Assembly (NCBI RefSeq): GCF_964204645.1
Contig: NC_134025.1
Location: 12,214,001-12,278,000 of the forward strand
DNA: 64,000 nt
Direction of reading: 5' to 3'
Source of the DNA: Tubulanus polymorphus
Taxonomy: Eukaryota > Animalia > Nemertea
The notes beneath the pieces were generated by a model that was given only the letters and a program-made list of their open reading frames with translations, ran no database searches and was not told the DNA's origin. The translations under genes were made by a program, and so were the position numbers. Below are positions 913 to 44,429 of this stretch, piece by piece; positions within the stretch are counted from its first letter, which is position 1, and every line of letters starts with the position of its first letter.

Positions 913-1896
913 TTAAGCGTACGACATTTCGATCTCGCACGCCACGCAGTCAACGGGCATGTCGTCAAATCCGTAGATGACCATGTCTCCCAGCGGCAAC
1001 GGGTGCACATGCACTTCACCGAAAGGCGCCGAAGAATTACGCAACGGCGGATCCCAAGTAATCTCGGCTGCGATCACTATTTTACTGCAGAATGCACACG
1101 AGAAGTGCGCCGAAGGGATTCCTCGGTAAATTGCGGGTCTACCGTTGCACGTCGGGTGCTTGTGCACTACCACTCGCTGCGTGGTCTCGGGTCCAGTCTG
1201 AAATTGTTGCTGTTCTTTTACCGGTCGAGGAGCGTCCTCCGCGGTCACGGGCGGAACGATCGGCCTGAGTTGGGACTCCTGGGTGATTTTAATACGAGTC
1301 GGCATTGCCCCACCAGTTCTGGAACCCGGCACCGAGTTTTTCCAGCGAATATGGTTCTGGGAGGGTCCTGTTCCGCTCCTCCAGTTCTCTCTTACGTTTC
1401 TCTTGAAGCCTGCACCTCTCCGCTCGCTAACCTCCCTCCTCCGTCGCTCCTCCACACGCTGCTTATTCGCGGTTTCTTTCGACGCTGCAGCTTCGGCTGC
1501 CCGGCGTTCCCGGCTAGCGTGAGTAACTCGCGCAACGCGTCTTTTAAGCTCCCGAGCACTGTCATTTGACGACTGTTCCGCGATGGAACTATGGGCCGCA
1601 TCTAGGACAGATGGGTCCAGTTTGGATAGAATTGGCGACGGATCTTTCGCCGGCAAGCATTTCGACGATGGAGAATTAGTGGTTTGCGGCTCCGACGGCG
1701 GAGAATTAACGGTCTGCGGCTCCGACGAAGAATTAGCGGTCTGCGGCTCCGACAAAGAATTAATGGTCTGCGGCTTCGACAAAGAATTATTTCTCGCGCG
1801 TTTCGTAGGTGGTTCGCCCTCATCCAGGGAGACAGGGAGGCTGGTCCCAGAGCTGCTCCACGACTTTCGTCGGGGTCCGGCGATCCCGGCGCGCAT
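913..1896 (-). CDS. Orphan intronless ORF, 327 aa: 9-aa S/P-rich repeats, Arg-rich middle, C-terminal CxxC...CxxC
   Basis: Open 981-nt frame in a GC/CpG-rich island. 27-30 bp tandem repeats at ~1670-1790 encode QTxNSxSEP. CAFC and CVAC near the C-terminus. No family recognised; expression unproven. Confidence 0.4.
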   Translation of the reverse strand: MRAGIAGPRRKSWSSSGTSLPVSLDEGEPPTKRARNNSLSKPQTINSLSEPQTANSSSEPQTVNSPPSEPQTTNSPSSKCLPAKDPSPILSKLDPSVLDAAHSSIAEQSSNDSARELKRRVARVTHASRERRAAEAAASKETANKQRVEERRRREVSERRGAGFKRNVRENWRSGTGPSQNHIRWKNSVPGSRTGGAMPTRIKITQESQLRPIVPPVTAEDAPRPVKEQQQFQTGPETTQRVVVHKHPTCNGRPAIYRGIPSAHFSCAFCSKIVIAAEITWDPPLRNSSAPFGEVHVHPLPLGDMVIYGFDDMPVDCVACEIEMSYA

Positions 1897-3298
1897 GTCT
1901 CCGGATCAAATCGGCCCGAGAGCCCGTCTTCCCGCACGCAAAGTTTTCTTAGTTTGTTCTGTTGGTGTTTTCCTGGGGAACTAAGTTGTTTATAATGCTT
2001 ATACCATTGATCTAAATCAATATTGGTTTCGCATGAGCTAGGATTTACTACTATTCGCAGGGTTACTTCTATGTTTATCGTCTATGATCTTGTCAATATG
2101 ATTTCCTTTTTCATCTCAATAAATTCCTGTATTACTTACGCTTTGTGTAATACGCAGATAGGTTCGGTCTTGAAATCGCCTTAGACAGTATTTTTAGCTT
2201 GTTGTTTTAGACTAGTTTTTGCATTGTTGCAGTCTCTATCAAATCATTTTTTCTTAGACTTATCGCTCGAATGGTTCAGCCACATTCGATTTTTTCGAGA
2301 CATGCATAGACAGGTCGGTGAAAAGAATTTGGATGTCTGAATATGGACGTTGAGAAATGAATGATAAATGCACTTATGTTTTCACCGGTTCTGGAACCCG
2401 GCACCGAATTGTTCCAGCGAATATGGTTCTGGGAGGGCCCTGTTCCGCTCCTCCAGTTCTCTCTTACGTTTCTCTTGAAGCCTGCACCTCTCCGCTGGCT
2501 AACCTCTCTCCTCCGTCGCTCCTCCACGCGCTGCTTCCTCGCGGTTTCATTTGATGCTGCAGCTTCGGCTGCCCGGCGTTCCCGGCTAGCGTGAGTAACT
2601 CGCGCAACGCGTCTTTTAAACTCCCGAGCACTGCCATTTGACGACTGTTCCGCGATGGAACTATGGGCCGCATCTAGGACAGACGGGTCCAGTTTGGATG
2701 GAATTGGCGATGGATCTTTCTCTGGCAAGCATTTCGACGATGGAGAATTAGTGGTTTGCGGCTCCGATGACGGATAATCAACGTCTGCGGCTCCGATGCC
2801 GAATAAGTGGTCTGCAGCTTCGACGGGGAATTAACGGTCTGCAGATCGGACGAAGAATTAACGATCTGTGGCTCCGACAAAGATTTAGCGGTCTGCAGCT
2901 TCGACGAAGAATTATTTCTCACGCGTTTCGTAGGTGGTTCGCCCGTCTTCCCGCATGCAAAGTTTCTTTCTTAGTTTGTTCTGTTGGTGTTTTCCTGGGG
3001 AACTAAGTTGTTTATAATGCTTATACCATTGATCTAAATCAATATTGGTTTCGCATGAGCTAGGATTTACTACTATTCGCAGGGTTACTTCTATGTTTAT
3101 CGTCTATGATCTTGTCAATATGATTTCCTTTTTCATCTCAATAAATTCCTGTATTACTTACGCTTTGTGTAATACGCAGATAGGTTCGGTCTTGAAATCG
3201 CTTTAGACAGTATTTTTAGCTTATTGTTTTAGACTAGTTTTTGCATTGTTGCAGTCTCTATCAAATCATTTTTTCTTAGACTTATCGCTCGAATGGTT
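1311..3298 (+). repeat. Direct segmental duplication: 1311-2276 vs 2383-3298, separated by a ~110-bp templated insert
   Basis: The two copies are near-identical. Copy 2 lacks ~106 bp between gccc microhomologies (1816-1819 and 1922-1925), which removes the ORF start codon. Confidence 0.9.
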
Positions 3299-6080: not shown

Positions 6081-8230
6081 AATCCTATTATTCAAAGACA
6101 ATCAATTCAAGTGATTCTTTAGAAAATGGTTGAATATTCTTTTCGGACATTTTGACCTGATGACTGACGTCGATGACTTTATTTAGGCCTTAACCAGTTA
6201 CTTTAGTGACCTATGATTCTGTTCCTGTTCAATTTGATAATGCTCATTCTACATCATTGATTAGGCTGGTCCTTTGGCATTTTGCATCTGGCATTTTTAC
6301 CGAACTAAGTGAATTTTGTTGTGTGATACTAATGCTATTGAGCAATGAGTTGCACATGTTCTAATTTCTGCGCCGCAACGCGACCGTTGCAACCGACCTG
6401 CGTGCTGTTGCGACTGGCAGCAACTAGTCGCACACAGTCGCTGACAACCGCATCGCAACCGACTTGCGCGGCCACTTGTGACGCGACGATCGCGTCGCGT
6501 CGCTAGGCCAACCTATGTCCGGCTTTAAGTAAAAAAACTCTTAAAAGATAATTTGATGATTATTTACAGTTATGCTGTAAATATACCATATAGTTACTGT
6601 AGAGTGCATAGCTACTAAGTTGTAAGATTTACATCATGCATAAGTCACTGATGATGGAGGTCATTAATATCGTTTTTTTCCTAGAGCAGGCAAAGAAATG
6701 CATTACGTTTTATACATGATGGAACTGAAACCATTTTTGTGACTGGTTTGTGGCGGATATCATCGCCGAAATCTACATCAATAACACCCACCAACAAAAC
6801 TGGATCGAATCTAGGATCCCTACTTTAACGCATCAGCCACGACGTAGAGTTTTCCCTTTCTATATCGTATTTCGAAATCAAAATCCTGAGTTAACACGAG
6901 TTAGACCAGTCAAATCGGTCCGTACCTAGTCCGGTCCAAACTTAGACCAGACGAAATTTTGAGCCTTCACATGGCGTTTTTACACGCGTCGATAAAATCG
7001 CTTGTCACAGGGCCCACAAGATATCGCCATGGGTATTCTAAGTTCGATAAAACCTGCTGAATAATTAACTGGACCTGGATGAAGTCTAGCTTCAGATTCC
7101 AAGTAGATCATGCGTTCTTCATGTGACAGTAGCTGAACGGTTTCCTGTCCAGATCACTGGATGCCCGAAATAACAAATCGAAAACACTATTAGCTCCGGT
7201 ATCAAGTTGTGGTTTTTATTCGACAATTTGCAAGTACAACGGAATTCCTTGTTTAAAAATCAATAAGGCAGGCACACACTGAGAGTTTGGTAACTAAATG
7301 ATGGACGAACATCGAAAAGCAATAACGGGAAAAGAAAAGAATAACGGAAAGAAAAGAAAGGGGGAGAGAAAAGACCTTGAAATATAATTAGAAATACAAT
7401 TAACTTATCACTGGTAAAACTGGTGGAGGCAACGTTCCAAAAACCCCAAAATTTGTGTAACTAACTGGCTGCACCGTTGAATACAAATACTTAATGTTAA
7501 TTGATATTTCCCCTAGTTAAAATAAGTGAAACCCAAGTATTAAGTTTAAACTCACCAGAAAGAGATTGATATAAAAGCTCCTAGGGAAAAATGGGAGGGG
7601 AAGAGACTTCCCACACACGTCTGCTCCAAGAAAGTTCTAAAAACTGTGTGTCAAATAAAACATCTACATGTAGGCCAAATAAAACTATATATCCCAGCAG
7701 GGGATATTCCAAATTACTAAAATCCTGCACCTCCACAAGTCTTACCAGGGACCATCGATCCAAGTCATGTCATTACCAACAATGCGGCGCATCGACCTCT
7801 GCTCATGCGCGCAACAATAGGCCGCGCTCGAGTCGACGGCTGACTGAGTTTCTATAGACCAACGAACTTCAAATCGCTGTGCTAGATTCCTGTTTGTTCC
7901 TTTTGATAAACGGTTTTCGACATCATTTACCAGACACCTTCAGTTATATGCTGCAAAAATATCATTAAGTTGCCAGAATATTTAATCCCTTCACTTTTTG
8001 AAAACAATTTTTAATTTGGATCTTGTTCAAAAGTGCCTATTGCGTAACGCGCAAGCGTGGTCGGGTTGTTTTCACGAGATGCAAGGCTAAATTAGAAAAT
8101 CAATACAGAAATAAAGTTTTCGACGAGTACAAGTATATGAAAAATCCTACTCTGTGGTACTAAACACAAGCAGGTGCCTTTAAAAAAGTTCCCTTCACTT
8201 TTACCCTGAAAAATTTAGAAAAAAATCAGA

Positions 8231-8298
8231 GCGCGATGCGGACGCGAACTACTAACCTCCCGCTTTGAAACCAATCGCTCTACCCACTGTGCCATTAC
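8231..8298 (-). repeat. tRNA-derived SINE-like head
   Basis: Minus strand has an A-box-like TGGCACAGTGG and a B-box-like AGTTCGCGTCC at tRNA spacing. No clean acceptor stem. Confidence 0.45.
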
Positions 8299-9084
8299 GT
8301 GTGCTTGTCTTCTGACCCAAATTTATTATCACTTTTGTTTGTATTTCTAAATCTTGTTCCAGGTTATTGCATAATACCAGCTCTCTGGCTACCTTGGCTC
8401 GGGGCGAAGCCAAAACAAAACAGCGGGCGGGATCCCGGGTATCATGGATGTGTAAACTGCGGTTTACTCCGCTCGATTATTGAAATATTTTTTTTAGTGA
8501 CAAACAATTTAAGGATCGTACCAACTCGGCGGATATCACCGTCGACACATTTTTACATTCCCGGGCAAAAGATCCAACTTGAGGGAGTCTACTGTACGTC
8601 CATAACAATTAAGAACAATCTTTGAAGCTACTATGGGTGGGACATGCGGTGCCTTGATTGATAATCCTTGATAAGTATCCTTGATTGAATTTTTAAAGAT
8701 CCTGAATGAAGACGACAGCAGCTTTCAGCCGTGAGAACCAATTTTTCAGCGAAAAGAAAACGAGAAAAAGATCCCTTTCTGCGGACAACTGTATAAAAAA
8801 CTGAGATCTATTAAAAGATTTTTCAATCTATTCTTTATTACGAAAATCAATGCTGTAATAACATATATAAAAAAAGACTAACAAAAACAAATTCGGAACA
8901 CATTTACATTGCACATTTCAAAGTACTTAGGACGGTATGAAGTGTAAATACACCAATAACACCACATAGGCATTGGATAATAGGTGCTTTATATATATCA
9001 ACAGTGATACCCTTTTTAGGAAACAGGCTCCAATATATATATGTAGATAATTCACTGGGAATATCACCAACAAAAACTACATCA

Positions 9085-9199
9085 GGCTCCGGTTTTATAG
9101 ACTGATATTAGCTTTAACCCAGGGGTTAACTCAATTGAAAACGAACTTTAGTTAGCCCCTGGGTTAAAGTTAATTAAAACAAGTTTATAAAACTGGCCC
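9085..9199. mobile_element. Harbinger-like palindromic MITE just downstream of the transposase stop codon
   Basis: Imperfect TIR ggctccggttttata / tataaaactggccc. Internal IR ttaacccaggggttaact / agttagcccctgggttaa. Similar design to 35318-35498. Confidence 0.65.
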
Positions 9200-9207
9200 C
9201 CCGAGGT

Positions 9208-11727
9208 CTACTGACCAGCCAATTCTCTCCGCATCAATAAAATACTTTTGAGCCTGTCATAGTTTCTAGCATTTGTTTTGAAACCTAGTTTCTGAAGCTC
9301 CGACTTAACACCCTCTACAGTTGAAGGAATTGGAGCCTGTTTCCTAAAAAGGGTATCACTGTTGATTTCATCCAAAATTTTGCGTTTTTTATTTTGAGCT
9401 CTGCTTTTTTTTTCCTCGTCCCAAAGTTTCGTATTTTCTTTAGAATATTTTCTCTTTTTTCTCTGGTGACCTTCCTTATTTAAATACTCGATACGCTTCA
9501 ATACTGTAAGAGCATCTTTTGGTCCATCACTACGGTTTGATTTTGACATATTAATTGACTTAACTACGTCATTTAATTTCTCAATACTTTGACCACTGTA
9601 TCTACTAATGGGCCCGTGCTCTTTTATCAAAAACGGAACGTGGTACAAGAGTACATGCATATAGGGCGTCACATTGGCCTTTTTATACCCTTTGCGTTTA
9701 CTGCCTAACGACAGAAATAAATTCACAAATGATTTAGCTTTTTCAAAACAAGACAGATGATTGTGGATATCAGTGCCACCGGTACTAGTTATATACGAAT
9801 GCAGAGAAATAAAATCAGCCCACAATTTAAGGACATCAGTCATTGTATCTTCATGCATGATTTTAGAAGTTGATAGTTTGTCTGGAAGTTGATTAAACAA
9901 TTTCTTAAATTCCGACCCTTGCAAAGAGCTCCATTCTAATTTTCCAGTTCCTTTCAATGTGACTGGATCACGGACCTCCCATATATGGAACACTACACCA
10001 CATTCTTGAATCAATCTTACAAGTCCATGCAAATTTTGACCAATGACTGATGCACTTAAATCGCGGGCAAATGATGCTTCATCGTCTACATCTTTGATAT
10101 CGAAGATTAGATTTCTCAGGAGAACATCTCCAACCCTGAGAAGTAAATGCAGTTCATCAACTACTAGATTTTTCATATCCACTGAAAACAAAGGTAATCT
10201 CTCCACACAAAATTGTGATCTCAAGGCGTCATCGCATAAGTTTTCATGCGTTCTTGCGATATAATCATTGTGGTAGAAGTCCCATGCTTTTGAAGTATCA
10301 TATCGATCATCTTGTGATACCTTACACCACGGACATGAATATTTTGCCGTAGAACCTTTTAATCCTAGAAACATTTGAATAAATTTCAAGTCGCCACCTA
10401 AAAGTATATTAATCTCATAAGTTTTCCCATCAATATCTATCTGTTTTGATGATATTAAATCATTAATTTCATCTATGAGGGGTTTCAAACCAGTTTTGAA
10501 ATTTTCATACGACTCAGAACCTTTTAATATGCCAAGTGCTATGGGCTTGTCAGGTAGTCCTGCATTTAGGAAATTAAACGCCACCGTAATAAAATTACTT
10601 GTCTTTGTCATACGTGCGCCATCGCCACTAATGCGAATTTCAATCTTTTTACTCGAATCCAAATTTTCTTTTTCAATTTTGCTGCAAATGGCCTCTTTCA
10701 AGCTAACATATGCACCAGGAATGCCCCCTTCAGCCCTATATATCGAGAAAATTTTGTTGAGAGATTCGCGGCATTGTACGATTAAACTGTTAGATGGTAA
10801 ACTCCCAGAGTTAAGCATAGATATTTCATGATACGCAGCATCACTGACACATAAACTATCTAAGACGTACAATAAATCCTGAATTCTGCTTTTATCCATA
10901 TCTGATAATTTATCAAATGATTTCTTGCTACTACTTTCTTCATCAAAATCTAATCTAAACTTCTGATTCTGATCACAAGAATCTCTAAAAGTTAAAGTTT
11001 CAGGAATCAAACCAAACGATTCTGCAAACCAAAGGGCCCGCTCAGCTTCATCCTTGAGGATTTTCAACTTCCTGTTGACTTGACTCTTCGACAAATCTTT
11101 AAACGCTTTACCACTATTGGTAATGCTAGGTTTTTGATACATAGTTTGAATGTAGTTTTTCAAATTTCTGTCAAGTTTGTCAATAGTTTCACATTTTTTT
11201 TCTAGTGTGTTTTCAAGATATTGATTTTTCTGCAGCACACCCTGTAATTTTGAGGAAAGTGATGACAACTTTTCCACAAGGTTCTGATTCTCTGAAACTA
11301 TATTTGACAGATATTCACTAATATGTGCTACGTTTAAGACTTCATCACTATGAATTGCAAGAGAATGAACTATACCTTGAAATTTTTGAAATTTCTTTCC
11401 ACCTTTATACAACTTATCTTTCCTAAACTTCAAGCATACACTGCTGCACAGATCGTGCAATCTATTCTCAACACGAAATGCATAATCAGAAATTTTGGCA
11501 TATTTCAAGCCAATGTTAACCATAGAAATATAACTTAAATTTTCATGAGATCTTTTTAACCCATTTAGTTCACGTAAAAATGCATTGCTTAACTTCAATA
11601 TAAACGCGATAGGTGTACTATTTATACACCGCTTTGTATCGACATATCCAACAGTTGATAACTGAATCTCTAATGCCTGGTGAAATTTAATTTCACAGTA
11701 ACTACCACGAACTAAATTGTCAGACAT
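9208..11727 (-). CDS. RAG1/Transib/Chapaev-related DDE transposase (~839 aa from ATG 11727), intact ORF
   Basis: RAG1-core-like motifs in the correct order: ISGDGA (cf. RAG1 ESCDGM, D600), GGDLKF (cf. GYDEK, D708), CPWC (Zn), VVDELHLLLR (cf. IDALH), VTPYMHVLLYH (cf. TNYFHKTLAH, Zn), SGQSIEKLND (cf. SEGNESGNK, E962). The ORF-track start at 11793 lies inside a MITE. Confidence 0.85.
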   Translation of the reverse strand: MSDNLVRGSYCEIKFHQALEIQLSTVGYVDTKRCINSTPIAFILKLSNAFLRELNGLKRSHENLSYISMVNIGLKYAKISDYAFRVENRLHDLCSSVCLKFRKDKLYKGGKKFQKFQGIVHSLAIHSDEVLNVAHISEYLSNIVSENQNLVEKLSSLSSKLQGVLQKNQYLENTLEKKCETIDKLDRNLKNYIQTMYQKPSITNSGKAFKDLSKSQVNRKLKILKDEAERALWFAESFGLIPETLTFRDSCDQNQKFRLDFDEESSSKKSFDKLSDMDKSRIQDLLYVLDSLCVSDAAYHEISMLNSGSLPSNSLIVQCRESLNKIFSIYRAEGGIPGAYVSLKEAICSKIEKENLDSSKKIEIRISGDGARMTKTSNFITVAFNFLNAGLPDKPIALGILKGSESYENFKTGLKPLIDEINDLISSKQIDIDGKTYEINILLGGDLKFIQMFLGLKGSTAKYSCPWCKVSQDDRYDTSKAWDFYHNDYIARTHENLCDDALRSQFCVERLPLFSVDMKNLVVDELHLLLRVGDVLLRNLIFDIKDVDDEASFARDLSASVIGQNLHGLVRLIQECGVVFHIWEVRDPVTLKGTGKLEWSSLQGSEFKKLFNQLPDKLSTSKIMHEDTMTDVLKLWADFISLHSYITSTGGTDIHNHLSCFEKAKSFVNLFLSLGSKRKGYKKANVTPYMHVLLYHVPFLIKEHGPISRYSGQSIEKLNDVVKSINMSKSNRSDGPKDALTVLKRIEYLNKEGHQRKKRKYSKENTKLWDEEKKSRAQNKKRKILDEINSDTLFRKQAPIPSTVEGVKSELQKLGFKTNARNYDRLKSILLMRRELAGQ

Positions 11728-11733
11728 CTTTAA

Positions 11734-11970
11734 CCCTTTCAGTGCAGAATAAGTAATACCTGAAAGTACTGGAGATAATTTAAAACTTTTCAAAAATTCA
11801 ACACTAATGGGTAGAGTGTCTACACCGCGACGCAGTGTATCGTTAGTTACTGATATTCACTATGTTTGCTGCAGTCATTTATTAGATATAAATTACGTCG
11901 GGCTGCGGTGTACTCGCTAAGTCTTTCAGCAATTTATACACCGAACTGCAGTATAGATGCACTGAAAGGG
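11734..11970. mobile_element. piggyBac-type MITE (237 bp)
   Basis: Perfect 13-bp TIR ccctttcagtgca / tgcactgaaaggg, flanked by TTAA on both sides (11730-11733 and 11971-11974). Confidence 0.9.
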
Positions 11971-12096
11971 TTAAAATAATTATTTCCTATGGGCAGCTAG
12001 TTCTTTAAAGACTTAAAAATAAAAACTAACGGAATGTCTAAAAAGAAAAAGACAGCTAAAACAGTCAAAGTACAGTATTATTGTAAAAACAGTCAT

Positions 12097-13399
12097 TCAA
12101 AGAGTTAATTTGTCACATGCACGGGACACAGCAGTGAATACGATGACTTCTTTAGGTTGCTGCTTTCCACGTTTCAATTCTCCATCTTGGACATAATATA
12201 TTGGACGAGTGAAGCTAAGCCTTGGACGTATCTTCACTGGAAATGTTAGTTTTACTCCCTGCCCGTGTTTGTCCAAAACATAATACCAATTGACATCCAA
12301 CGATAAATTCTCGAAATCAGCCAATTCGAGACTAATAAATCCTTTTTCGCATGGGTTACCTTTACGATAAAACACCGAACGATAAACATCCAGAGGAAAT
12401 GGAATTGTGATGGTCAAGTTGCCCTCCAATAATTTTGAGCGTATATGCGACATGAAGACATCTGCTACCTCTAATATTTTCGATTGGTCCACAGCAGGAT
12501 TCTTAAAATTGTCAAGAATTTCTTTTGGTATGTGGTGCTTTGGTTCCCATGTACTTTCGTGAAGATTGTAGTGTTGCCAATGGACGAGATACTGAAAATT
12601 AAAGATTTTTCAAAGCATGAATTAAAAAAAAAACAAGAAACTAATAGGCTATCGCTCTTTGTCAAAAGAGGGGTTGAATAGAGTCGTTCAAGACTGTCAC
12701 ATTGTCAATTACCCTTCTTGTCAAAATGGTATGCATGGTCATTGTAAACAGTATTTAAAATGAGTAGGCCTAGGTACCGACTTGACCTGACTCTTAGTCT
12801 TGACACATGGCTTTTAGGACATCTAGATTTAGGCCCGTGACGACCTTACCGACCTATTACATTGTCAATGTACAAAATCTCAAAATCATTTTCTGCCGAC
12901 ATTTTGAGACAGTCGGCAACGCAAAATTTAACATTTTTTCTGAAGCTGGTTCACACTCTGTCAGAATGCCTACTCGACCCGGTAAAAAGTAGCCTAAGCC
13001 TACCTACCCTAGTGTAGTATGGATAGAGGCTGACCGGTATTGTTTTCGTAGGAATGATATATAATAGCTTTTAGAGGGATAGCCTAATTAGGATAGTGGT
13101 GCGATACACGTACATTTTTAGGCTCCTAGGGCAGGCTGTTGTTGTTTAGTTAGGTTGATTTATGAATTTTGTCTAACGAAACTTACTTCCTCGGTTGATT
13201 CCTTGTATGTTATCAGGCGCTTGATTATATACCACCCCTCTAGAATATCCCTGTGCTTTCTTTGTGGTTCTCGTTGATATCTAACAGCTTCTCCATTAGC
13301 TAAGCGTTTAAAGTCGATCTTCTTGTTACGTAAATTGTACGGAGACTGATCGGTCTGATCGCTCGACGCGAGTAACCGGGGTAACCGGGGCGCAGCCAT
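12097..13399 (-). CDS. Two-exon chromodomain protein (~235 aa), exons 13399-13187 and 12591-12097
   Basis: Donor GAA|GTAAGT and acceptor ttttcag|TAT are both phase 0. The join gives GWYIIKRLITYKESTEE-YLVHWQHYNLHESTWEPKHHI, a canonical chromodomain with aromatic-cage Y/W/Y and TWEP. It is in frame with the ORF at 12097-12492. Confidence 0.85.
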
Positions 13400-14439
13400 C
13401 TTTGAACAGCGCGCTCGTAGCGGTGACTGGGAAAATCAATATGCGCCGTATTGTTGGTAATGAAGCAAAATGCTCCAGTAACCCAGGATGAGCAGTAACC
13501 TGGACATCTCTGCTAAAAATCAGCAATTTAACTACTGAATTCTAAGAAATTCAATTTACACCGGCCTAGTTAGAAATAAACAAAATACTACATACTGTGC
13601 CCATGCCACATTCATTTGACCAATTCATTCCTGTCAGGTTTCGACATTTTTGCGAATGCGATTTTATTCTATCATGCTGAAACTCAAAAGCGACGTTTAA
13701 ACACGATTCAAAATATGGTAAAACGGATGATGATACACGAATATTTACAATGAATACGAATAGGAATATTTATTTCACTCCTAACATTCCCATGGTATAT
13801 GGAGGATGTAATGGAGCCAAGGATCAGGGGGAACCAATCCTTAGATAGCTTCCTTTTACTAATTAGTTTCTAATATAAAAAAACAACAGCTATGACAGTG
13901 ACGCAGTGAATTAAAATACTACTAAAGGCTATTTATTTACATATGAATAATATAAACACGTCGGATCTTCGGATCTACTCTATTGGATGACGCATCCATA
14001 CGTGCCACATAGAACGACGATTGCGTACTCACACAGGAACCTTTCTTTACGAAATCGGATCACTCGCGGGCTTCCTTGGAGCACTGACACCAATGACCAT
14101 GAAAAACAAAAACTTCGAATCCGGATTGAGACTCACACATCTAGGCGCGGCGACGATACATTTTACTCACAATAGAATCTCGACTACTACCTGCTACAAG
14201 TTACAAAACATGGCTACTATACTAAAACAAAAGATGGATTGCTCCTACCAAATCTAAGTGCCATCGGCAACGTAATAATACGTAATAGTAAAAAATTAGG
14301 GTGACTCCTAATAATGCCTATGAGTGATAAGTATAATATATAAGTGCTAGACAGAACAGAGGAAAAAACAGTATTTACAATTATTTACATAAACAGTAGT
14401 AAAAGCATTCCAGAGTTGATGTTTCACAGAATTCTGCAA

Positions 14440-15619: not shown

Positions 15620-17156
15620 GACAAATGTGCAACAAATAAGATGATAGAGTACTCTGAAACCGGAACCAGAATGGTGATGCCCTACTGCTGACCAAACGCG
15701 ACTAGCTTACTCCAAGCCCGTTCATAGGCCTTCGCGGTTTCCATTGTCACGGCCACTGCTAATAGGCGTCTATAGTGGGCTTATACTTTCTGGTAGCCAA
15801 GACTGGGGAATCGGCGTAGGTTGAGGGTAGGCCTATGGCACTTCCACGCAAAATCGACGAAACTGGAACCGAGAAAGTAGGTCGGGTAAAATGTTATATT
15901 TACCGGGTATGTGTTCGCTAATGAAAAAACAATATTATATTTCAAACACACAGAGATCATCATAGCCTTATCTTGTGATGATTGTTTATTAATCACGTGG
16001 ACCACAGATTAGTTATCAGAATTAAAACATATATCGTAAATAAAATCGTTAAGCGATGAGCCTTCTGGGTACGATAGGTGGTGAATAACCCTAAAACCCC
16101 GGACCTTTTAGGACTACTCCTAGGGGCGAAACGTGGGTTGGGGTACCGTGCGGCATGAATGGCGTCTGAAAAGGACCCAGAACTCAACCGTTGAAAGCTC
16201 TTTGCTGACCCTTTCATGGATCACGTCGGGCGCTCCCTAGCGGACTTGAGGTTATCCATGCATTTGGTAGATGAAGGGCCCGTGAAAAAACTGTCTATGC
16301 GAAAACCAGAGGTAAAACCTTGGATAATAATGTCACGATCCTCGGCCTTGTAATCGTGAATGTACTTTCTTAGTTCGGTAAGTTTGACCAGCGTTGGCAA
16401 ATTATGATTTATAGGCCTGGTCGTTATGCTTATATCCACTCGAGGGGCCTGGCGTTTTTTTGACGCGAGCAACAAGCGGCCGAATGTGGGCCTCTGCATA
16501 ACTTGCATTGATGTGCGTATATGCAAGGTTTACGCGAACAGGATGAGGCGGCGCTATTAAATGCGTAGCAGAATTTGACCGCCTGGGCCAAAGATGCCTG
16601 AAAGGGCTGTTTCATGTTATTACTTCGAGTCTTAGCTTCCAACCACAGCTCCCAAATGAATGGTTGAATAGATTTCGCCCTCACCCACTGATCGATTGAC
16701 TTTATGGTTGTAAGCCTAAGTGTCGCTATCGATACGTGAGGCATTTCCTGACCGGGTGCGGGCAGTACGTTAAAGGAGTACGAGGCATCGAGCTTATGTG
16801 AGAGTACCGCAAAGTTGAGCCATTTCCCTGACCAAATAGTTTCTTTAATTTTATCCGGCACTAACGCATCTAATGCTACCGCAGAAGATAGGAGAAAGCC
16901 CGGTCCGCTCAACTGCGGTTGTTGAGGAATACCCATACTATCGGGTGCAATATAAGGAGATATCCCTGCTTCCGGCGTTTCCAGATCCAGAGCCTGTGGG
17001 ACGGTCTCCTGTTGAGGCGTATTTGTAGCGGTGTTTGCAGGGATGGCATGATTGACCTGAGGTAACAAAGAGACTGCTCTTTCGAGCGTCTCCAGAAGGC
17101 AGTCTGCCCGAGCCTCCTTCTGTATGCCCATTATACACAATGCAGCTATTATTTCT
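15620..17156 (-). mobile_element. DIRS/Ngaro tyrosine-recombinase retroelement fragment, copy 1 (internally deleted)
   Basis: Gag (VPDKIKETIWSGKW; CYAFN..C....C.YAH.C..C..PH), RT N-terminus (IQGFTSGFRI..NLKSA), RNase H end (VHVINKQSS; HIPGKYNILPDLLSR) and YR N-terminus (TAKAYERAW..FVAHL). Confidence 0.8.
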
Positions 17157-18693
17157 GACAAATGTGCAACAAATAAGATGATAGAGTACTCTGAAACCGG
17201 AACCAGAATGGTGATGCCCTACTGCTGACCAAACGCGACTAGCTTACTCCAAGCCCGTTCATAGGCCTTCGCGGTTTCCATTGTCACGGCCACTGCTAAT
17301 AGGCGTCTATAGTGGGCTTATACTTTCTGGTAGCCAAGACTGGGGAATCGGCGTAGGTTGAGGGTAGGCCTATGGCACTTCCACGCAAAATCGACGAAAC
17401 TGGAACCGAGAAAGTAGGTCGGGTAAAATGTTATATTTACCGGGTATGTGTTCGCTAATGAAAAAACAATATTATATTTCAAACACACAGAGATCATCAT
17501 AGCCTTATCTTGTGATGATTGTTTATTAATCACGTGGACCACAGATTAGTTATCAGAATTAAAACATATATCGTAAATAAAATCGTTAAGCGATGAGCCT
17601 TCTGGGTACGATAGGTGGTGAATAACCCTAAAACCCCGGACCTTTTAGGACTACTCCTAGGGGCGAAACGTGGGTTGGGGTACCGTGCGGCATGAATGGC
17701 GTCTGAAAAGGACCCAGAACTCAACCGTTGAAAGCTCTTTGCTGACCCTTTCATGGATCACGTCGGGCGCTCCCTAGCGGACTTGAGGTTATCCATGCAT
17801 TTGGTAGATGAAGGGCCCGTGAAAAAACTGTCTATGCGAAAACCAGAGGTAAAACCTTGGATAATAATGTCACGATCCTCGGCCTTGTAATCGTGAATGT
17901 ACTTTCTTAGTTCGGCAAGTTTGACCAGCGTTGGCAAATTATGATTTATAGGCCTGGTCGTTATGCTTATATCCACTCGAGGGGCCTGGCGTTTTTTTGA
18001 CGCGAGCAACAAGCGGCCGAATGTGGGCCTCTGCATAACTTGCATTGATGTGCGTATATGCAAGGTTTACGCGAACAGGATGAGGCGGCGCTATTAAATG
18101 CGTAGCAGAATTTGACCGCCTGGGCCAAAGATGCCTGAAAGGGCTGTTTCATGTTATTACTTCGAGTCTTAGCTTCCAACCACAGCTCCCAAATGAATGG
18201 TTGAATAGATTTCGCCCTCACCCACTGATCGATTGACTTTATGGTTGTAAGCCTAAGTGTCGCTATCGATACGTGAGGCATTTCCTGACCGGGTGCGGGC
18301 AGTACGTTAAAGGAGTACGAGGCATCGAGCTTATGTGAGAGTACCGCAAAGTTGAGCCATTTCCCTGACCAAATAGTTTCTTTAATTTTATCCGGCACTA
18401 ACGCATCTAATGCTACCGCAGAAGATAGGAGAAAGCCCGGTCCGCTCAACTGCGGTTGTTGAGGAATACCCATACTATCGGGTGCAATATAAGGAGATAT
18501 CCCTGCTTCCGGCGTTTCCAGATCCAGAGCCTGTGGGACGGTCTCCTGTTGAGGCGTATTTGTAGCGGTGTTTGCAGGGATGGCATGATTGACCTGAGGT
18601 AACAAAGAGACTGCTCTTTCGAGCGTCTCCAGAAGGCAGTCTGCCCGAGCCTCCTTCTGTATGCCCATTATACACAATGCAGCTATTATTTCT
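17157..18693 (-). mobile_element. DIRS/Ngaro fragment, copy 2 (head-to-tail duplicate, period 1537 bp)
   Basis: The same ORF set is shifted by 1537 bp. One substitution seen (LTEL vs LAEL). Confidence 0.85.
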
Positions 18694-20287
18694 AACCCTA
18701 TGAAATGGTTATCTACAGAGACTTTATAGTTTTTTATTCAGGAAGTTTGTGACACAGCTTCTTCTCATATCCACCAACTCTTCTGAATGCACACTGCCAC
18801 CAACCTGCTAGACATCTAAGTTGTATAATATTTCAGAGCCATCTTCTTATCAACTGAGTTGATCTGTGGTTTGACTTTCGAGATAATTGTGTCTTAAAGC
18901 ATCTTGCAACTGCAGTATTTTCCAAACCTTATCTTTTTTCTGTTTATCTCTGCCCGTTTGGTTACTGGTACAGTGCAGAGTGGTACCTAGATAATATATT
19001 TTTTCTGTGATATTACATTATCAGCAATCTGGGCTAATTGCTACATCCTCATTGATTTATTTTTACCAGCCCCATCAGTAGGTATATCCCTAACAATTGC
19101 TCCAACTCTCCGACAGTCAAATTTGTAATAGTTGTGTTAGGTCACGTCTAGCAAGCTCATGTATTTGTCAACTGGATGATGTCATCAACTGTAAGTTTAA
19201 GCATTTAGTGACAAAACCTAACTTTATGGTGTCCAAATTTAAGCCTGGTCGACGAATGAAGCTGATTTTCTGTATGATACAGTAGCACTATAGTTTCAAT
19301 GCTTGATGTTTCTTAATGAACGAGCTTGCAGACATGAGCTGGAGGCTCCTGCTCCACTCCTTTATCAAACGTTGGATCCACAGCCGCCCAACCGTCTTCT
19401 AAATCTCTTTGGTCCCTGAGGTTGACTGGAGAGGGTCCACGGCTATCTAGTGCATTATCCCCAAACACTGGACCCTAGCAATAAAACCTAGGAATTACTG
19501 CTTGCGCTTCAAAGATAGTGCTTTTTAATGCGATCTTTGTCATGACAATCCTGCCCTCTTGATAGGATAGTATCTCTCTTGATAGGATAGTATCTTAGAC
19601 TCAGCAATTTGGATGGAGTGGAGGGCATCCCAAAATTCACTGGAATTGGATATCGAGAGTGAACCACAGGGTCCTAAATGTGTATTTGGAACCACCTTGA
19701 AAATTGTTGAAACACTTAATAATGATAACACCCCAATTGGGTCACTCATTTGAGTCATCGCTAGCTTCGGGTCCTGGCTGTTGACAACCAATTATGTTAA
19801 TTCTCATTTGTATAGTGCAAAACAACACCACATCCATGTTTCAATTGGCTTGGGGTAAGGAGCAGTATGTACAGATCTGTTCCGAGATTTGTCAAGGGCA
19901 ATGGCCTGTTATTTGTCACTGCCTGAATTTCTCTAGTGAGTGTTATCTTTGAAATGTATAAATTACTTCCCTTAGACCATTTTATGGTTGATTTGCAAAT
20001 CCTGGTTATTCCTGTAGACTCTGTCGTGTGTGAATGCTTTTAATTTGTCACCCCCTCCGTGGAAGACTTTGTTAACCTGGAAATCTGGTTAATCATAGCA
20101 TTTAAGTGATCCAGTACTTTTCCTCAGTTGAGTCCTTGTTGATCTTATCCCATAATAATCCATAGTTTTGTTGGCATGCCTTATTAGTAGTGTGCTTACA
20201 GGTGAATTTGCTGGTGCAATAGACTCCAGTTGCCTCTGAGGCGACTGTCTCGGATAATCGGATGCCTCGGATCAAAAATAAATACCC

Positions 20288-21327
20288 TTTTTAGCCGACT
20301 TGGGACTAAAGTCCCAGCGGGCTTGCGTACAGTTTTCGTCCGTTGTCCGTCCATCTGTCCATCCGTTCGCCTGTAGACGGAATCCAGTTATTTTGGGAAG
20401 TTTTTTGAAAAGACACTTCAATGTAATGTCTTGATATTTGGGTTACACATGTACCTAACCTAGACACATCTTCAGACCTCTGGCCCTGTCAGATTCAAGA
20501 TGGCCAACTGGCAACCATTGTTGTTCGCCAAAATCAGCACTTTTTACACATTTTTCATGGGAAATTTCGAGGGAAATTTTGAAGACAATTCAATCAATTA
20601 TCTTGATCTTTTGTAGGTATTTGTATCCCCCCCCGGGCCCATCAGCATAAGAAAAGTTGTGTCGATCGGACTCGTGATGGCTGTCCTGTGGCTTTTTTGT
20701 GACCAAAAATGTCACTTTTGGCCCGAATTCTGAGTCCTGTAGCTTCCTACAGGTTTGCCATTTTTCATTGAAATTTGTGGTGGCTATTCTATGGAAAAGG
20801 ATCTTTAATACCTAAGACAGATATTTTAGATCTGTCAGTTTAGATCAGACCAATTATCATGCAACTGGCCGCCATCTTGGTGTCATCAGTACTCATTCGT
20901 AGGTGGAAAAAAGTTTTTCCGCATTATATTGATACCTAAGCGTATTTTGTTACCACAATCATTTGCAATCAATGATTATATTCGTACATATGCATATTTT
21001 GTTACGACAATCAATTGCAAAATTCTATGATGACATGTTCTATGATTGTGGTGAGTGTCAAGGTCATTTGGGTTTGCATATGGTCACCAGGGGGCGTTGA
21101 ATAGTATAATAACTTAGTATTTCCATATTATATTGGTACCAAGGCATATATTGTTATCTCAATCAATTGCAAAATTGTAGCTGCTGACATGTTCTTTGAT
21201 TGTGGTGAGTTTCTAGGTTATTGTATTTTTATATGGTCATCAGGGGGCGTTGAATATTGAAATTGTTAGATTGTTAAGCATTTGAAACCCTTTCCAAGTG
21301 GGCATTGTGTCCCTGGACCCCTACTTT
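20288..21327 (+). mobile_element. Complete Helentron-associated non-autonomous element (HINE-like), family 1
   Basis: 5' T-run and hairpin gccgacttggga..tcccagcgggc, then a (GTCC)-like microsatellite, ~154-bp internal repeats, 3' subTIR tccaagtgggc, short hairpin and T-run. Confidence 0.75.
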
Positions 21328-21499: not shown

Positions 21500-23178
21500 T
21501 GTATTATATTTCCGACAGTGATCAGATTTACATTCTACAGTACCGTTTTATTTTCGTTCATACATTCAATCACACACATAGTACTCTACCACTTTGAATA
21601 TCTTTCACCGACTAAACTTTATTACACACTATGTTAACAGGGTCATGATACGTGTCATGTTAAGTTTACATGGTTAACACCCCCACTTAAACTTTAATTC
21701 ATGTACACAATATTTTTTACTACAATTCTAATTATAAAACTAAGATAATAATTTCCTTAATAATCTTGTATATAATGTCTCAATATAGTTCAATATAATT
21801 CATACAGAAAACACTTTTGTCAAAAACTGTAATTTTGTTTTCGACACTGGCTTAGTAAGAACATCTGCTAAGTTTTCCTCTGATGGTACGTACTCTAGTT
21901 TTACAACCCCCATTCGTACTTCTTTTCTTATGAAGTGATACCTGATATCGATATGCTTGGATCTCTGATGTTGTACAGGATTGTTTGCTAAAGCTAGTGC
22001 ACCTTGATTATCGCCATACAGCAGCAAAGAATCTACATCAAAGTTCAAGTCTTTTAACAATTGTAGTAGGAACTTCCCCTCGCATATAGCTGATGCTAAA
22101 GGCATGTATTCCACTTCACATGTTGACAATGCAACAGTTGGTTGTTTTCGACTCTTCCAGGAAATGAATGAACTTTCCCCTGATAAACCAAAACAATAAC
22201 CTGTAACACTGCGTCTATCAGCTGCAGCACCCCAGTCTGCATCACAGTAACCAACTAACGATAAACTTTCTGACCTTATGAAAGTCAGACATTGATTCCT
22301 TGTGCCCTTCAAATAACGTAATACACGCTTTGCCATGCTCAGATAGAGTTCAATAGGGCAAGACATGTACTGAGATAACAAAGTTACTACCAAACACAAA
22401 TCTGGTCTGGTAGCTGTCATGATGTAAATTAGACTACCAATTATTTCTTGATACAATTTCAACTCACTGCCTTGCAATAAATTTGACTGAACTACAATCT
22501 TATTGTCCCCTATTTCACAAGGGGTTGATCTCGGTTTACAATTTTCCATCGAGAATCTGGAGAGAATTTTGTCAATATACGGTGACTGACTCATAGATAT
22601 GTAATCTTTTTCGCATTCAAATCTGATACCTAGGAACCATGATAACTTTCCGAGATCTTTCATTTGGAATCTTCTACAAAGACATTGTTTTATATCATCC
22701 AACATACGGTAATCAGTTGTAGCGAAAATGATATCATCTACCCAGATGAGTAGTATTATAATTGACTCTTCAGTGAACTTCATATATACACAATAATCAG
22801 TTCGAGACTGTGTGAACCCTTCATTTATCAAATATTTATGCAATGTTCGATTCCAATTATGACCGCTTTGTTTTAAGCCATACAGCGATTTCTGTAATTT
22901 ACAGACTAAAATTTCACCGTTTTCACCTTTAACAGAATAACCTTCCGGTCATGTTTCTGATCATCGAATTTTACACATCTAACCCTCTTTATAGCTCTAG
23001 TTTCTGGATAGTATACTAGGTACGCAGGACTACCTTTATCGTAACCTATAAATACACCTTTTTCTGACCTAGGGTCAAGCTTTCGTTTGTGTTGAACATA
23101 TGCATAACATGGTGCCCCAAAAACATGCATGTGACTCAAATTTGGCTTTCGACCAGTTAGCATTTCATATGGGGTCTG
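21500..23178 (-). mobile_element. Ty1/copia LTR retrotransposon 3' remnant (integrase C-term/SH3, internally deleted RT, RNase H, PPT, 3' LTR)
   Basis: KLDPRSEKGVFIGY, KSLYGLKQSG, LIWVDDII, GYCDADW, STCEVEY, SKHIDIRYHFIR and ADVLTK. PPT gtggggg followed by LTR start TGTTAAC at 21679. The distal LTR end was not resolved. Confidence 0.9.
21800..22843 (-). CDS. copia RT/RNase H partial ORF
   Basis: 347-aa open frame with WVDD and the RNase H motifs. The RT N-terminus is deleted. Confidence 0.8.
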   Translation of the reverse strand: MHKYLINEGFTQSRTDYCVYMKFTEESIIILLIWVDDIIFATTDYRMLDDIKQCLCRRFQMKDLGKLSWFLGIRFECEKDYISMSQSPYIDKILSRFSMENCKPRSTPCEIGDNKIVVQSNLLQGSELKLYQEIIGSLIYIMTATRPDLCLVVTLLSQYMSCPIELYLSMAKRVLRYLKGTRNQCLTFIRSESLSLVGYCDADWGAAADRRSVTGYCFGLSGESSFISWKSRKQPTVALSTCEVEYMPLASAICEGKFLLQLLKDLNFDVDSLLLYGDNQGALALANNPVQHQRSKHIDIRYHFIRKEVRMGVVKLEYVPSEENLADVLTKPVSKTKLQFLTKVFSV

Positions 23179-24520
23179 GTACGATAGAAAATGCATGACA
23201 TGAAAATGACTGTAACGGAATATTCCTACAATGAAAACATGGGAATAATCCACTATTAGAAAATACTAGAAATGGCACAACCTGATAAAACAAGAACTGG
23301 AGAATGTAGGAACGTACACACTGGATTATAAAATAATAATCCAATAGTGGAATATACAAGAAATACCCCTTACTGGAAAATACAGGAAATTGAAAATGTA
23401 GGAATTTCCTGAATATTCCAGTTCCTGCAAAGTGTGATGCATGTTTTTCCGGCATTTTCCTGTTCTTGTACTTTCCAGTTCTTGTTCATTATTGATGTGC
23501 ACATTCTTGTAATTTCATGTCATGCTTTTTCTAGTTCTTGTTTTTTCATGTTGTTCATTTTCAGCATCCTACTGTCTATCGCTGAATGTGCACAACATGA
23601 AAATACAAGAATCCATTAATGATCTTTATATAGAAATTTCGGGATTTCATCCAGTTTTCAATAAATAATTAATGACAAATGGCCTATAAACATTTGCAAA
23701 AGCAAAAATCATCCACGAAATTATTTATGGTAAAACAATACTTCATGTTTAACCCTTCAAACCAGCCGTGCTATGACTTTTTTGTGCCCAAAAATGTCAA
23801 TTTTGGTCTGAATTTTTCATTGCAATTTGTGATAGGTATTCTTTGGAAAGGGATCTTTTTGATCAACCAATTATCACGCAATTGGTGGCCATCTTGGTGT
23901 CATCAGTACTCAATCATAGGTTGTAAAAAGTATTTCCACATTATATTGATACCTAAGCATATTTTGTTACCGCAATCAATTGGAAAGATGTAGCTCATAG
24001 CATAGCACGTAGCTCAGTTCTATGTTACTCGTGAGTTTCAAGGTCATTGGTTTTTGTATATGGTCACCAGGGGGCATTGAATGTTACACTAACTTAGTAT
24101 TTTCATATTGTTTTCTTACCTATGCATATTTTGTTACCATAATCAGTGCAAAGTTGAAGCTCATGACATTGGCTATGAGTGTGGTGAGTTTCAAGGTCGT
24201 TAGTCATTCCATATGGTCACCAGGGGCGTTGAATAGTAGAATAACTTAGAATTTCCTTATTATATTGGTACCTAGGCATATTTTGTTACCATGATCATTT
24301 GCAAAGTTGTAGCTCACGACATGTTCTCTGATTGTGGTGAGTTTCAAGGTCATTGGGTTTTGCCTATGGTCACCAGGGGGTGTTGAATAGTAGAATAAGT
24401 ATTTCCTTATTATTTTAGTACCTAGGCATATTCTATCACAATCTATTACAAAATTGTAGCTGCCGACATGTTCTATGATTGTGGTGAGTTTCAAGGTCAT
24501 TGGTTTTTGTTTATGGTCAC

Positions 24521-35845: not shown

Positions 35846-36314
35846 TTTATGCTATTGTTGAGTTTCAGTGTTTCGGTGTTGTGTAAATGAATAAGATAGG
35901 GAAAAGTGGATAAAAAGTGGAATTGATTCGTCAGTTATTGAGTGCGGTTTCACAAAATCCTCGACTTGTAGGCTTTTGGAAATTTTTCGTGCCTTTTCCA
36001 CGTCTTTCTTAATGAACCGGTATATATAAAAATGATATCGATGACAATCTTTGGTATTTTGAATTTGCAAATTATTGTTTTTTCAGGGAATGTTTTCGGA
36101 AGGGTTCATCGAAAATGTATGTGGGCAAGCCGAAGAACCAACGTTTTCGAGTGGTAATCTTGTCAACAATTGTCGTACAAAGTCAAAATTATGAGGGGGA
36201 TGCGCACAATTGTTTAAAGCTGGCGTTTTGTTTACCGCAGATGTTGTTTAGCATACGTTGCATTTATTTGATAGTTCTTCCTCTATGTCATTCAAATGCT
36301 TAATTCAAATAATC

Positions 36315-39449
<3,135 letters not shown>

Positions 39450-41013
39450 AATCTGCACCGACATCATCTGCTGTCAACTACCGCAACGAATGAAGAGTAT
39501 ATGGCGAATTGTAAAAAAAAGAATTTATTCTAAATATACGATCTTGGGTACAAAAAGATTAATATCTTTTTTACGAATTGAAAAATCTTTTGTTTGACTT
39601 TTTCGAATGAGAAGTCGATAGTATTTTTCAAACTTCTTTTGATGGCCCTGGACGGCAGATTTCCATGCTTAGAAATGTATTCATTTGTAGAAATGTAATA
39701 AAGCGATCAGTTAAAAATATTCTACCCGTACAAGATCGGACATGGTAGAATAACTACACTTTGACGCGGAGAACAGATCATAAGTTTAAAACCCACACTA
39801 TATACATAATTTCTAAGGTCAAAAGCAAAGTTTATTATTCAAAGATTTAAAACCAAAAGACACGACGTTTCAGACTCTAGAGACCATCGTTACACTTAAC
39901 GTATATAGTCAGCCGTGTGTGCGTTTTAAACTTAATTAAGATCGGATATATTTATTCTGATTTCTTAGTTTCAAGCAATTTACATGTATTACTCGTCTAG
40001 AAATGCATTAACGATTTTTTTCCAAGTTCACAAATCAAATATAATTTTTTCTCGTATACACCAGGACGCCTCCGTATTCATATAGTATTTTATGATTTAG
40101 AAAATAGGTTGCCTATGTTGTATTGATCTATGGTGTATTAATTGTGGCTTGACAATCATCGATATCTAGTCTATCGTCGTTATGTCTTTTTGGAAAAATA
40201 AAACAAAAATCAAATGCTCGAAGTGATGTCTTTGCAGACGTTTCGAATCGATCGTGTATTCAAAGTGTGCATGATTTTCAATTACTCGTTTTTCATCTTC
40301 GATTGAAGTAAGTTCTTGCTGGCTGTCTTCACTTTAAGAGTCACTCAAAATACAACATCAAGCTCTATAACCACTGGGCAAGTGGACAAGTTCCATTGGT
40401 CTACTGGCTAGCGTTTAGAATATAGCGTTTTAATCTTGCAACATCTTTTTTTCTTTTCAGCTTATAAAGTTCTCCACCATAGTGCTTGTTCTGAACTTCG
40501 AGAGACTTTCCATACTCTCCCAAGCTCTGGTTTTTTCTTTCGGCCCATTTATATCAATTCATCATACGGGTAGAAGATTTTGACCTCTTTTGGTAATGTC
40601 AACTAAACTAAGATAAGTAGTATCTGGATAGTTGGGTGTTGGCCAACAGAATCATTCATTACTGTGGAATTTTATGAAATATTGGATTTCAATTTCTATT
40701 TGAGACGTACGTAAGTACGGGGAAAGGGTTTTAGTCACATCTTGGAGTAATCATTTAAAATGATTACTCCAAGGTCACATCACGATGCTTAGACCAATCG
40801 ACTTTCCAATGTCGACAACGTAGCCGGGTCGCTAAAGACATTTGTCAAGTAGCGACATACGAGTCGACGAAAATGGACTTGCGGAGTGATACCGCGATAT
40901 TAATCGACGCGATATATCGATTAAATTATTTCAAGAAAAATCAATAGCTTCCACAGATTTCATACGCATCTGTTGCATATTTTTGATTTTGTTTTAGTTG
41001 GTGATTGGAAGTC

Positions 41014-44000: not shown

Positions 44001-44429
44001 TATGGCCCAAATCAGCCAAATACTAGTAAGCTGACAATAGAATTTTTTCCAAAACATTGGTCGATGTATACAACGAGTAATTGTATCTTTTGGCAATGAT
44101 CATAACATGTAATATTTTTACATACAAAAGTCAAACCTGTGATCATAAACAGCCTCGTTAAGTATAGTCATTAGGTTACTTCTTTGCGGTTGGGATCTTT
44201 TTCTGTTTCGCTCATCAATACATTCATACCAAATATCACTTCATTTTCTAGATTCAATTTACTTAGAACAGCCTATCGAAGATTTGACATCGACGGGTTG
44301 ACAAATATCGGCGAATTTTACAAAGTTCTTGAAAGGACACACAGTCCGCTATTCTCATATATCACCGTTGAATTAGGACGACCGGCACCAACAACGGATG
44401 CGCACCATCAAACGACGAACTATTATTAG
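41014..44429 (+). CDS. bre-4: GT7 bre-4/B4GALT-like copy 2; exons 41014-41263, 41457-41695, 41778-41965, 42079-42201, 42422-42520, 44252-44429
   Basis: Same six-exon layout, open frame. Motifs YNKGMLMN, FHDVDLLP, PLYKDIFGGV and YWNWGAEDDD. Confidence 0.88.

Follow-up and report, generated by a model that had tools for sequence, protein, structure and literature searches.

A RAG1-related two-gene DNA transposon with a chromodomain partner gene, inserted without target-site duplication in the nemertean Tubulanus polymorphus

Transposases of the RAG and Transib type bind the terminal inverted repeats (TIRs) of their element, cut the element out and join its 3' ends to the target at a 5-bp stagger. 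Here we analyse a 64,000-nucleotide stretch of the nemertean Tubulanus polymorphus (NCBI RefSeq GCF_964204645.1, contig NC_134025.1, positions 12,214,001 to 12,278,000; this whole stretch is the window, and its own numbering is used below), which holds a 5.7-kb transposon in which a RAG1/Transib-related transposase gene travels with a gene for a chromodomain protein, here called the partner. Among the described systems, RAGL elements carry convergent RAG1L and RAG2L genes between CAC TIRs and are flanked by 5-bp duplications, and a target-site duplication is required for calling them (PMC7204232; except for PMC9435367, what we say of the sources cited here covers the accessible portion of each). 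RAGL and Transib groups have both been described, with a tandem gene order in AanRAGL of Aureococcus (PMC9435367). Transib elements measure 3-4 kb, encode one transposase of ~700 amino acids (aa) and produce a 5-bp duplication (PMC1131882); fly Transibs are treated in 10.64898/2026.08.26.747230. The wider CMCT clade comprises EnSpm/CACTA, Mirage, Chapaev, Transib, Plavaka and ESTA as well as Lanisha, which have in common C(2)C and H(3-4)H motifs, ends that are mostly CA..TG and duplications of 2-5 bp, and some of its lineages carry chromatin-related TET/JBP genes, the fungal TET dioxygenases having been proposed to counter silencing (PMC12730594). Lanisha is named but left undescribed in the accessible part of PMC8245031. 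Spy elements, TIR elements of the PHIS group, are joined bluntly, in a non-staggered manner, at AAA|TTT without target-site duplication (PMC11304231).

As for a chromodomain partner, the string 'chromo' occurs 0 times in the accessible portion of PMC7204232, such a partner is absent from the main text of PMC9435367, the supplements of which might list transposases of this kind, and the accessible main text of PMC12730594 has none, its sole occurrence of 'chromo' being the title of a reference. A survey of bivalves with standard profiles reported one Transib and, in its accessible part, mentions no family like the present one (PMC10294476). Our literature searches, with Repbase and most subscription journals outside their coverage, returned no description of a chromodomain-RAG1-like pairing or of a duplication-free RAG1 relative.

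The element of the window is delimited by a TIR pair that brackets both genes, and the 13-nt terminal word has exact matches only at the two element ends. Reads from four runs, representing at most three samples and two studies, were compared with the window (X1 may be the source sample). The features that define the element are:

7771..13462, minus strand: whole element, 5,692 bp, with CAT...ATG termini (inverted repeat and read-proven joint)
13441..13462, minus strand: 5' TIR, 22 bp, beginning CATTACCAAC (inverted-repeat search; several distinct flanks behind 13462 in reads)
7771..7792, plus strand: 3' TIR, identical to the 5' TIR at 21/22 bases (X1 and X3 contigs begin at 7771)
9208..11727, minus strand: RAG1/Transib-related DDE transposase, 839 aa (open reading frame without stops; motif, profile and alignment matches)
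13187..13399, minus strand: partner exon 1, 71 aa, with a basic N-terminal motif and the first chromodomain strand, which bears the first cage aromatic
12592..13186, minus strand: predicted phase-0 GT-AG intron of the partner gene, 595 bp (homology-supported)
12097..12591, minus strand: partner exon 2, with the second half of the chromodomain and a ~135-aa alpha/beta domain without a named family
8496..13253, no strand: breakpoints of a non-autonomous deletion derivative, 936 bp long, that sits at another place in sample X4 (12 reads, 7 starts; 3-bp microhomology)

The insertion itself can be read from an empty site. One X1 contig and five X4 reads (four starts) carry the joint 7770->13463, with 0 ambiguous letters and no intervening base. 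In the reads, the sequence before 13463 is identical to the left flank of the element in the window at 27/30 bases, including the 14 nearest the joint, and the same spacing is kept in two other copies of the host repeat (both compared by eye). As no base was gained or lost at this site, the element was inserted between T7770 and A13463 without duplication; the flanks, TGT|AAG, show no match when compared over 1-12 bp. The preliminary description of this locus had left the ends and any duplication to be defined, and both TIRs, 7771-7792 and 13441-13462, lie outside the interval that it had covered. The insertion lies within a multi-copy host repeat, and transposons are dense around it; this fits chromatin targeting but is no test of it.

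Further copies are evident in the reads. In X1, depth in the element interior is 63-73 vs 30-39 in the flanks, about twice as high, and in X4 the interior lies at about 12-30 vs 4-10 in the flanks, with the element ends at about 43-55. Contigs of near-identical extra copies differ from the window at 8/2,445 and 2/1,642 bases, and reads running beyond 13462 diverge into several flanks (agreement 0.51 in 33 reads and 0.62 in 15). The coding variants that were classed, 13 in number and taken from tables showing part of all differences, include no stop. Together, the empty site, the varied flanks, the near-identical copies, the doubled depth and the deletion derivative show that the element is young, multi-copy, polymorphic and recently mobile, and we are nearly certain that it is a real two-gene element.

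The transposase was found as first described, with an intact frame, a D-D-E triad (D369, D446 and E716, at codons ~10621, ~10390 and ~9580) and zinc ligands in a CxxC (C465/C468) and an HxxxxH (H691/H696) motif; a DxxH motif lies at 524-527. In an alignment of 51 rows, made up of the window protein and 50 relatives, D369, D446 and H527 are present in 51/51 rows, and, among the rows covering them, C465/C468 in 50/50, H691/H696 in 48/48 and E716 in 47/47, so that the nine key residues are kept in nearly all rows that cover them. D369 is inferred to be the first catalytic aspartate from its motif and invariance. On its own, the window protein has a weak likeness to RAG1 (E 0.019 with Pfam RAG1, E 0.26 with phmmer against PDB), and the phmmer alignment places D446 and E716 on the RAG1 catalytic motifs. 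The 51-row profile, searched against PDB sequences, matches amphioxus BbRAG1L (6b40) at E 2.2e-6, zebrafish RAG1 at 5.3e-6 and mouse RAG1 at about 2e-4, and these matches rank ahead of coiled-coil noise. A coiled coil occupies the N-terminus, where the RING region of RAG1 was not recognised. The single-sequence structure model is poor (predicted local distance difference test, pLDDT, 37). Relatives with a named source come from Mytilus, Pocillopora, Desmophyllum and Amphimedon, all of them uncharacterised proteins, and no match was found in phage records or viral contigs. Weak Pfam matches also occur in the alignment, namely SAP (4/51), Rho_N (5/51) and DUF1280 (6/51); SAP and Rho_N possibly point to a DNA-binding tail of helix-extended-helix type, while the DUF1280 family may itself belong to these transposases.

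The partner gene lies upstream on the same strand, 369 bp from the transposase ATG (first given as ~370 bp), 241 bp of that gap being a TTAA-flanked miniature inverted-repeat transposable element (MITE). The proposed exon junction is the sole GT..AG pair within +/-4 nt, is in phase 0 and yields a predicted spliced product of 235 aa, in which Chromo is the only Pfam domain. The chromodomain had been said to appear only after splicing. This is overstated, because exon 2 exceeds the Pfam cut-off for Chromo even without exon 1 (31.6 bits vs 25.1); what splicing does add is the first strand and the first cage residue. Homology supports the 13187/12591 splice: in full-length relatives (P0112, P0113, P0147, P0197) the chromodomain is complete and the basic N-terminal motif is shared, exon 1 reaches E 4.8e-7 against a hidden Markov model (HMM) built on three such relatives, and near this position an intron interrupts coral-type loci, L021 and L064 being contiguous there. 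Among the named carriers are Montipora, Mytilus and the tick Rhipicephalus (5/10 looked-up proteins have an organism name). A word-index search with exon 2 gave 0/33 candidates; a later HMMER search did find relatives, 151 cluster representatives matching the C-terminal domain at E<=0.001.

The aromatic cage of the window chromodomain reads Y, W, Y, at positions that we assume from the layout of HP1. The third position is aromatic in 16/17 proteins (of 150 listed) and 17/17 locus fragments that fit the search motif, and the first in 14 locus matches and the window, through a pattern that demands an aromatic there. Such a three-residue cage is that of canonical HP1/CBX-type chromodomains, which bind methylated H3, and we hold it to be quite probable that the partner reads methyl-lysine. 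The specificity of the mark is not fixed, since CDY, CHD1, SUV39H1, CBX and HP1 score about equally against the partner alignment among solved chromodomains (E 5e-6 to 5e-5). Behind the chromodomain, the unrecognised domain first put at ~130 aa proved to be ~135 aa long, is kept by every partner gene, at ~30% identity, and has no clear structural match. An AlphaFold2 model of exon 2 (90-row alignment) gives a confident mixed alpha/beta domain (pLDDT 96.8), for which no fold match was found at E<=0.001 in PDB or BFVD; the best structural Z among 48,161 chains is 3.4, and the ESM Atlas holds only unnamed cnidarian chromodomain clusters, at <0.9. Its top-scoring matches, all weak, belong to small alpha/beta folds that bind nucleic acid (uS8, R3H, Smr; Z<=3.4), a hint only, and failed fold searches with a model are proof neither of a new fold nor of a function.

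The pairing recurs outside the window. A metagenome scan with the transposase confirmed 214 stretches, the best 80 of which were kept and gave 79 loci. Exon 2 alone detects the partner beside the transposase in 23/79 loci (tblastn, E<1e-5), all downstream and on the opposite strand, while an HMM of the C-terminal domain detects it in 27/79 (E<1e-4), in 17 clusters at 75% identity; this HMM includes three locus sequences, and its reversed-protein control reached a best E of 0.2. Linkage elsewhere, which had been set beforehand as the test of the preliminary description, was thus found at related loci in many marine-animal DNA samples, and chance linkage is rejected. With nine soil-type loci set aside (picked by contig type and low G+C content, GC), 22/26 loci with at least 1 kb downstream carry the partner (one of them upstream); most remaining contigs stop too early downstream to show it. 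Across the partner-bearing elements the transposases are only ~30-40% identical and two gene orders occur, with the cage and the intron position conserved. Separately, in locus L009 the RAG1-like gene has upstream of it a piece of an open reading frame from a different type of transposase (L009:2987-3505, minus strand), and the locus also contains a second partial transposase copy.

The usual layout differs from that of the window, where the genes are in tandem: 24 of the 27 partner-bearing loci are convergent (tail-to-tail) and three have the partner upstream on the same strand. One of the three, L034, was discarded as a tandem case, its partner probably being a neighbour's decayed gene. As L034 clusters with the convergent L027, the tandem order is supported by L018, L022 and a Mytilus coruscus gene model (P0094), in which the partner is followed by transposase pieces 46% identical to those of the window. 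A FastTree phylogeny of 261 core columns, confined to this transposase family and leaving out loci with an intron- or frameshift-split core (including L057-L061), was rooted on the soil-type group; the placeable convergent loci form one clade (support 0.96), outside which the window, L018, L022 and Mytilus fall, and no order of events is drawn from it. The soil-type elements (L047:484-4915, L068:45-4181, L049, L050, L069, L041) have related transposases and CAT..ATG ends, are AT-rich (GC 26-28%) and, as a guess from this composition and the style of their proteins, are probably fungal. In them the chromodomain gene is replaced by a second gene on the opposite strand that encodes a C2H2 zinc finger and a ~130-aa domain. 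Compared with the second domain of the partner, this domain gives an hhalign probability of 3% and a trimmed score of 14.3, below the best of 60 shuffles (20.3); the gene is similar to the partner's in size and, by eye, in helix-strand order.

The termini of relatives resemble those of the window. CAT followed by a CCA(G/A/C)A-type motif marks the ends in L001, L003, L004, L010, L020, L038, L057-L061 and L067; the soil-type L047 starts in the same way, and the soil-type L068 has CAT..ATG ends. Related elements are 5.2 and 6.8 kb long vs 5.7 kb in the window. In eight two-ended elements from five families, the flanks show no match in four, 1 bp in three and 2 bp in one (L061), and a match of 3-12 bp in none. 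Blunt insertion is the probable normal mode of the family; some related families may make a short duplication.

How, then, does this element relate to the described systems? It resembles RAGL/ProtoRAG and the RAG1-RAG2 locus in its RAG1-type DDE and zinc motifs, in its best PDB profile match (BbRAG1L 6b40), in having two genes between TIRs, mostly tail-to-tail in its family but with a tandem variant like that of AanRAGL, and in a partner with a domain of histone-mark-reader type. However, the partner is a 235-aa protein with a chromodomain and an unnamed alpha/beta domain rather than a kelch-PHD protein, the TIRs begin with CAT and not CAC, no 5-bp duplication is present, and the transposase resembles RAG1 at the profile level only; membership was therefore rejected for want of a kelch-PHD partner, CAC TIRs and a 5-bp duplication. 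With Transib it shares a related catalytic core, the CxxC and HxxxxH ligands, short TIRs and non-autonomous deletion derivatives, whereas Transib has CAC ends and 5-bp duplications and the present family has CAT ends, two genes in 5.2-6.8 kb and no duplication seen. Membership in Transib was likewise rejected, given the CAT ends, a 5-bp duplication in 0/8 two-ended elements and two genes in 5.7 kb. Spy shares the lack of a target-site duplication, but the window flanks are TGT|AAG and those of relatives are varied, not AAA|TTT, and the transposase has RAG1-type motifs; membership in Spy was rejected, and the profile matches of the transposase are RAG1/RAG1L. Chromoviruses, the chromodomain long terminal repeat retrotransposons, are also mobile elements with a chromodomain, linked to heterochromatin integration; as far as the accessible sources describe them, theirs is fused to a retroviral-type integrase, whereas that of the partner is encoded by a spliced gene of its own within a DNA transposon. 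The DDE triad, the C(2)C and H(3-4)H motifs placed after the second D and before the E, and the CA..TG termini agree with the CMCT clade, in which duplications of 2-5 bp contrast with zero at the window site. For this reason the element is filed as CMCT-related and not under a named lineage, and it appears to represent a lineage that fits no named family tested, set apart by features rather than by a tree. The preliminary description, which proposed a RAG1-related two-gene element with a chromodomain in place of a kelch-PHD partner, is borne out in this respect by the partner at 27/79 related loci and by the position of both genes between the termini of a polymorphic element; it had missed the CAT termini, the zero duplication and the usual tail-to-tail layout.

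By analogy with RAG and Transib, the transposase would bind the two TIRs, excise the element and join both 3' ends to the target. The zero duplication implies that both element ends attack opposite phosphates, so that the 3' ends would be joined at directly opposite target positions, with zero stagger vs five in RAG and Transib. The partner may be a dedicated cofactor, as RAG2 is for RAG1, yet unrelated to RAG2 in sequence and predicted fold. Its chromodomain likely binds methylated histone tails and its second domain likely contacts the transposase, and together they would steer insertion towards marked, repeat-rich chromatin. The mark read would be a repressive one, of H3K9me/H3K27me type, because the nearest solved chromodomains are those of CDY, CHD1, SUV39H1, CBX and HP1. 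We put at about 0.6 the probability of this reading, in which a recently mobile cut-and-paste-type element has a partner that likely binds methyl-histone and transposase and so steers insertion; tethering, as the role of the partner, is favoured by a narrow measure from its domain anatomy.

Several points weigh against this reading. Binding of the partner to transposase and to histones is inferred from domain composition, targeting rests on one insertion site, and a single locus supplies the empty site that proves zero duplication. Among 15 cross-pairings of flanks one gives a 3-bp match (about 0.2 expected), and L057 and L060 share 84 bp of left flank while their right flanks differ, which shows that metagenome contigs can be chimeric. 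For the predicted splice and the presumed expression of the partner, runs X5 and X6, the RNA nature of which is a guess, gave 0 records on the gene. The chromodomain loop of the window is 2-3 residues shorter than that of relatives. Four of the 26 roomy loci (L007, L009, L051, L066) have no partner at E<1e-4, and the C2H2 second gene of the soil-type elements means that the transposase clade does not have a chromodomain partner in every case.

The alternative that survives best, though we consider it rather unlikely, is that the partner is an anti-silencing factor, which would bind repressive marks on element copies or compete with host HP1/Polycomb readers so that the transposase stays expressed, neither touching the transposase nor picking targets. 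The conserved aromatic cage would serve this role too, the partner is a separate gene with no fusion, TET dioxygenases with a proposed anti-silencing action occur in fungal members of the wider clade (PMC12730594), and the weak nucleic-acid-binding matches of the second domain offer a hint. Nothing direct speaks against it; what counts against it is that neither Pfam nor structure searches found a recognisable enzyme or effector domain in the partner. It is improbable that the partner is instead an obligatory structural subunit of the transpososome, an activator like the RAG2 core, acting through its second domain, with the chromodomain as an activity-tuning add-on that could be exchanged, for instance for the soil-type C2H2 finger. 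The conservation of the ~135-aa domain throughout the partner genes and the like size and helix-strand order of the soil-type second gene speak for this proposal, but the homology between the two is not significant. Last, captured cargo with no role in transposition, the missing duplication being a repair accident, would agree with the single empty site and the loci without a partner but is highly improbable, as the partner is intact in about 17 distinct elements of such divergent transposases, two orders and conserved cage and intron position and has named relatives in corals, mussels and a tick, and as none of the two-ended relatives has a 3-5-bp duplication.

Other features lie within the element:

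11730..11974, no strand: high-copy MITE, core 11734-11970, with CCCTTT ends and TTAA on both sides (18-bp perfect inverted repeat; very high depth)
9089..9198, no strand: palindromic high-copy MITE directly after the transposase stop (repeat search, read depth)
8997..9034, plus strand: 38-bp inverted copy, without mismatch, of the transposase coding segment 9329-9366 (also in X1 and X3 contigs)

The first of these MITEs, which we take by its hallmarks to be of piggyBac type, is inserted in the gap between the genes and stops 2 bp upstream of the transposase ATG. If it is left out, the genes lie only 128 bp apart, which leaves little promoter room. Is the transposase then expressed from a read-through transcript, or from a promoter that the MITE supplies? 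X1 contigs enter this MITE at full depth, so it seems common to the element copies. The 38-bp inverted pair encloses the palindromic MITE and would fold as a hairpin in a long transcript.

The rest of the window is rich in repeats. At 15620-18737 a decayed segment is present in two near-identical copies 1,537 bp apart, with a CCCH-type finger frame and then another frame that is presumably DIRS-like. A tandem ~1.05-kb duplication with a 27-bp minisatellite and GC-rich frames without a Pfam match lies at 913-3266, and decayed pieces of copia-type (RVT_2) and gypsy-type (gag) retrotransposons at 21800-23265 and 24600-26900. Arrays of a ~153-bp repeat unit are dispersed at 132-792, 20839-21264 and 23856-24520, and a ~145-bp tandem array occupies 53808-54586. 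Host genes, named by eye, comprise about four tandem galactosyltransferase-like copies and SLC22-like transporter exons (36200-52000 and 60100-60900).

With this pairing, a RAG1-type transposase is seen for a second time, and independently, in the company of a putative histone-mark-reader gene. It bears on whether the role of RAG2 is a one-off or a recurring solution, and a young, intact element makes that question testable. Pipelines that demand a target-site duplication would miss this family, which may explain why it is undescribed. Zero-stagger integration by a RAG1-fold enzyme, if true, would reveal what determines target bending and stagger in this enzyme family and might offer a scarless insertion tool. 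More tentatively, and with the odds somewhat against it, an unnamed RAG1-related lineage of corals, mussels, ticks and other animals may have evolved independently the RAG1-RAG2 design of a cutter with a separate histone-mark reader, often tail-to-tail, with an obligatory chromodomain partner of new fold and blunt, zero-stagger integration. If so, it would provide the first case of a RAG1-fold transposase that leaves no target-site duplication, as well as a natural system for scarless, chromatin-guided insertion, and the window would supply a near-intact, recently active copy for its reconstitution.

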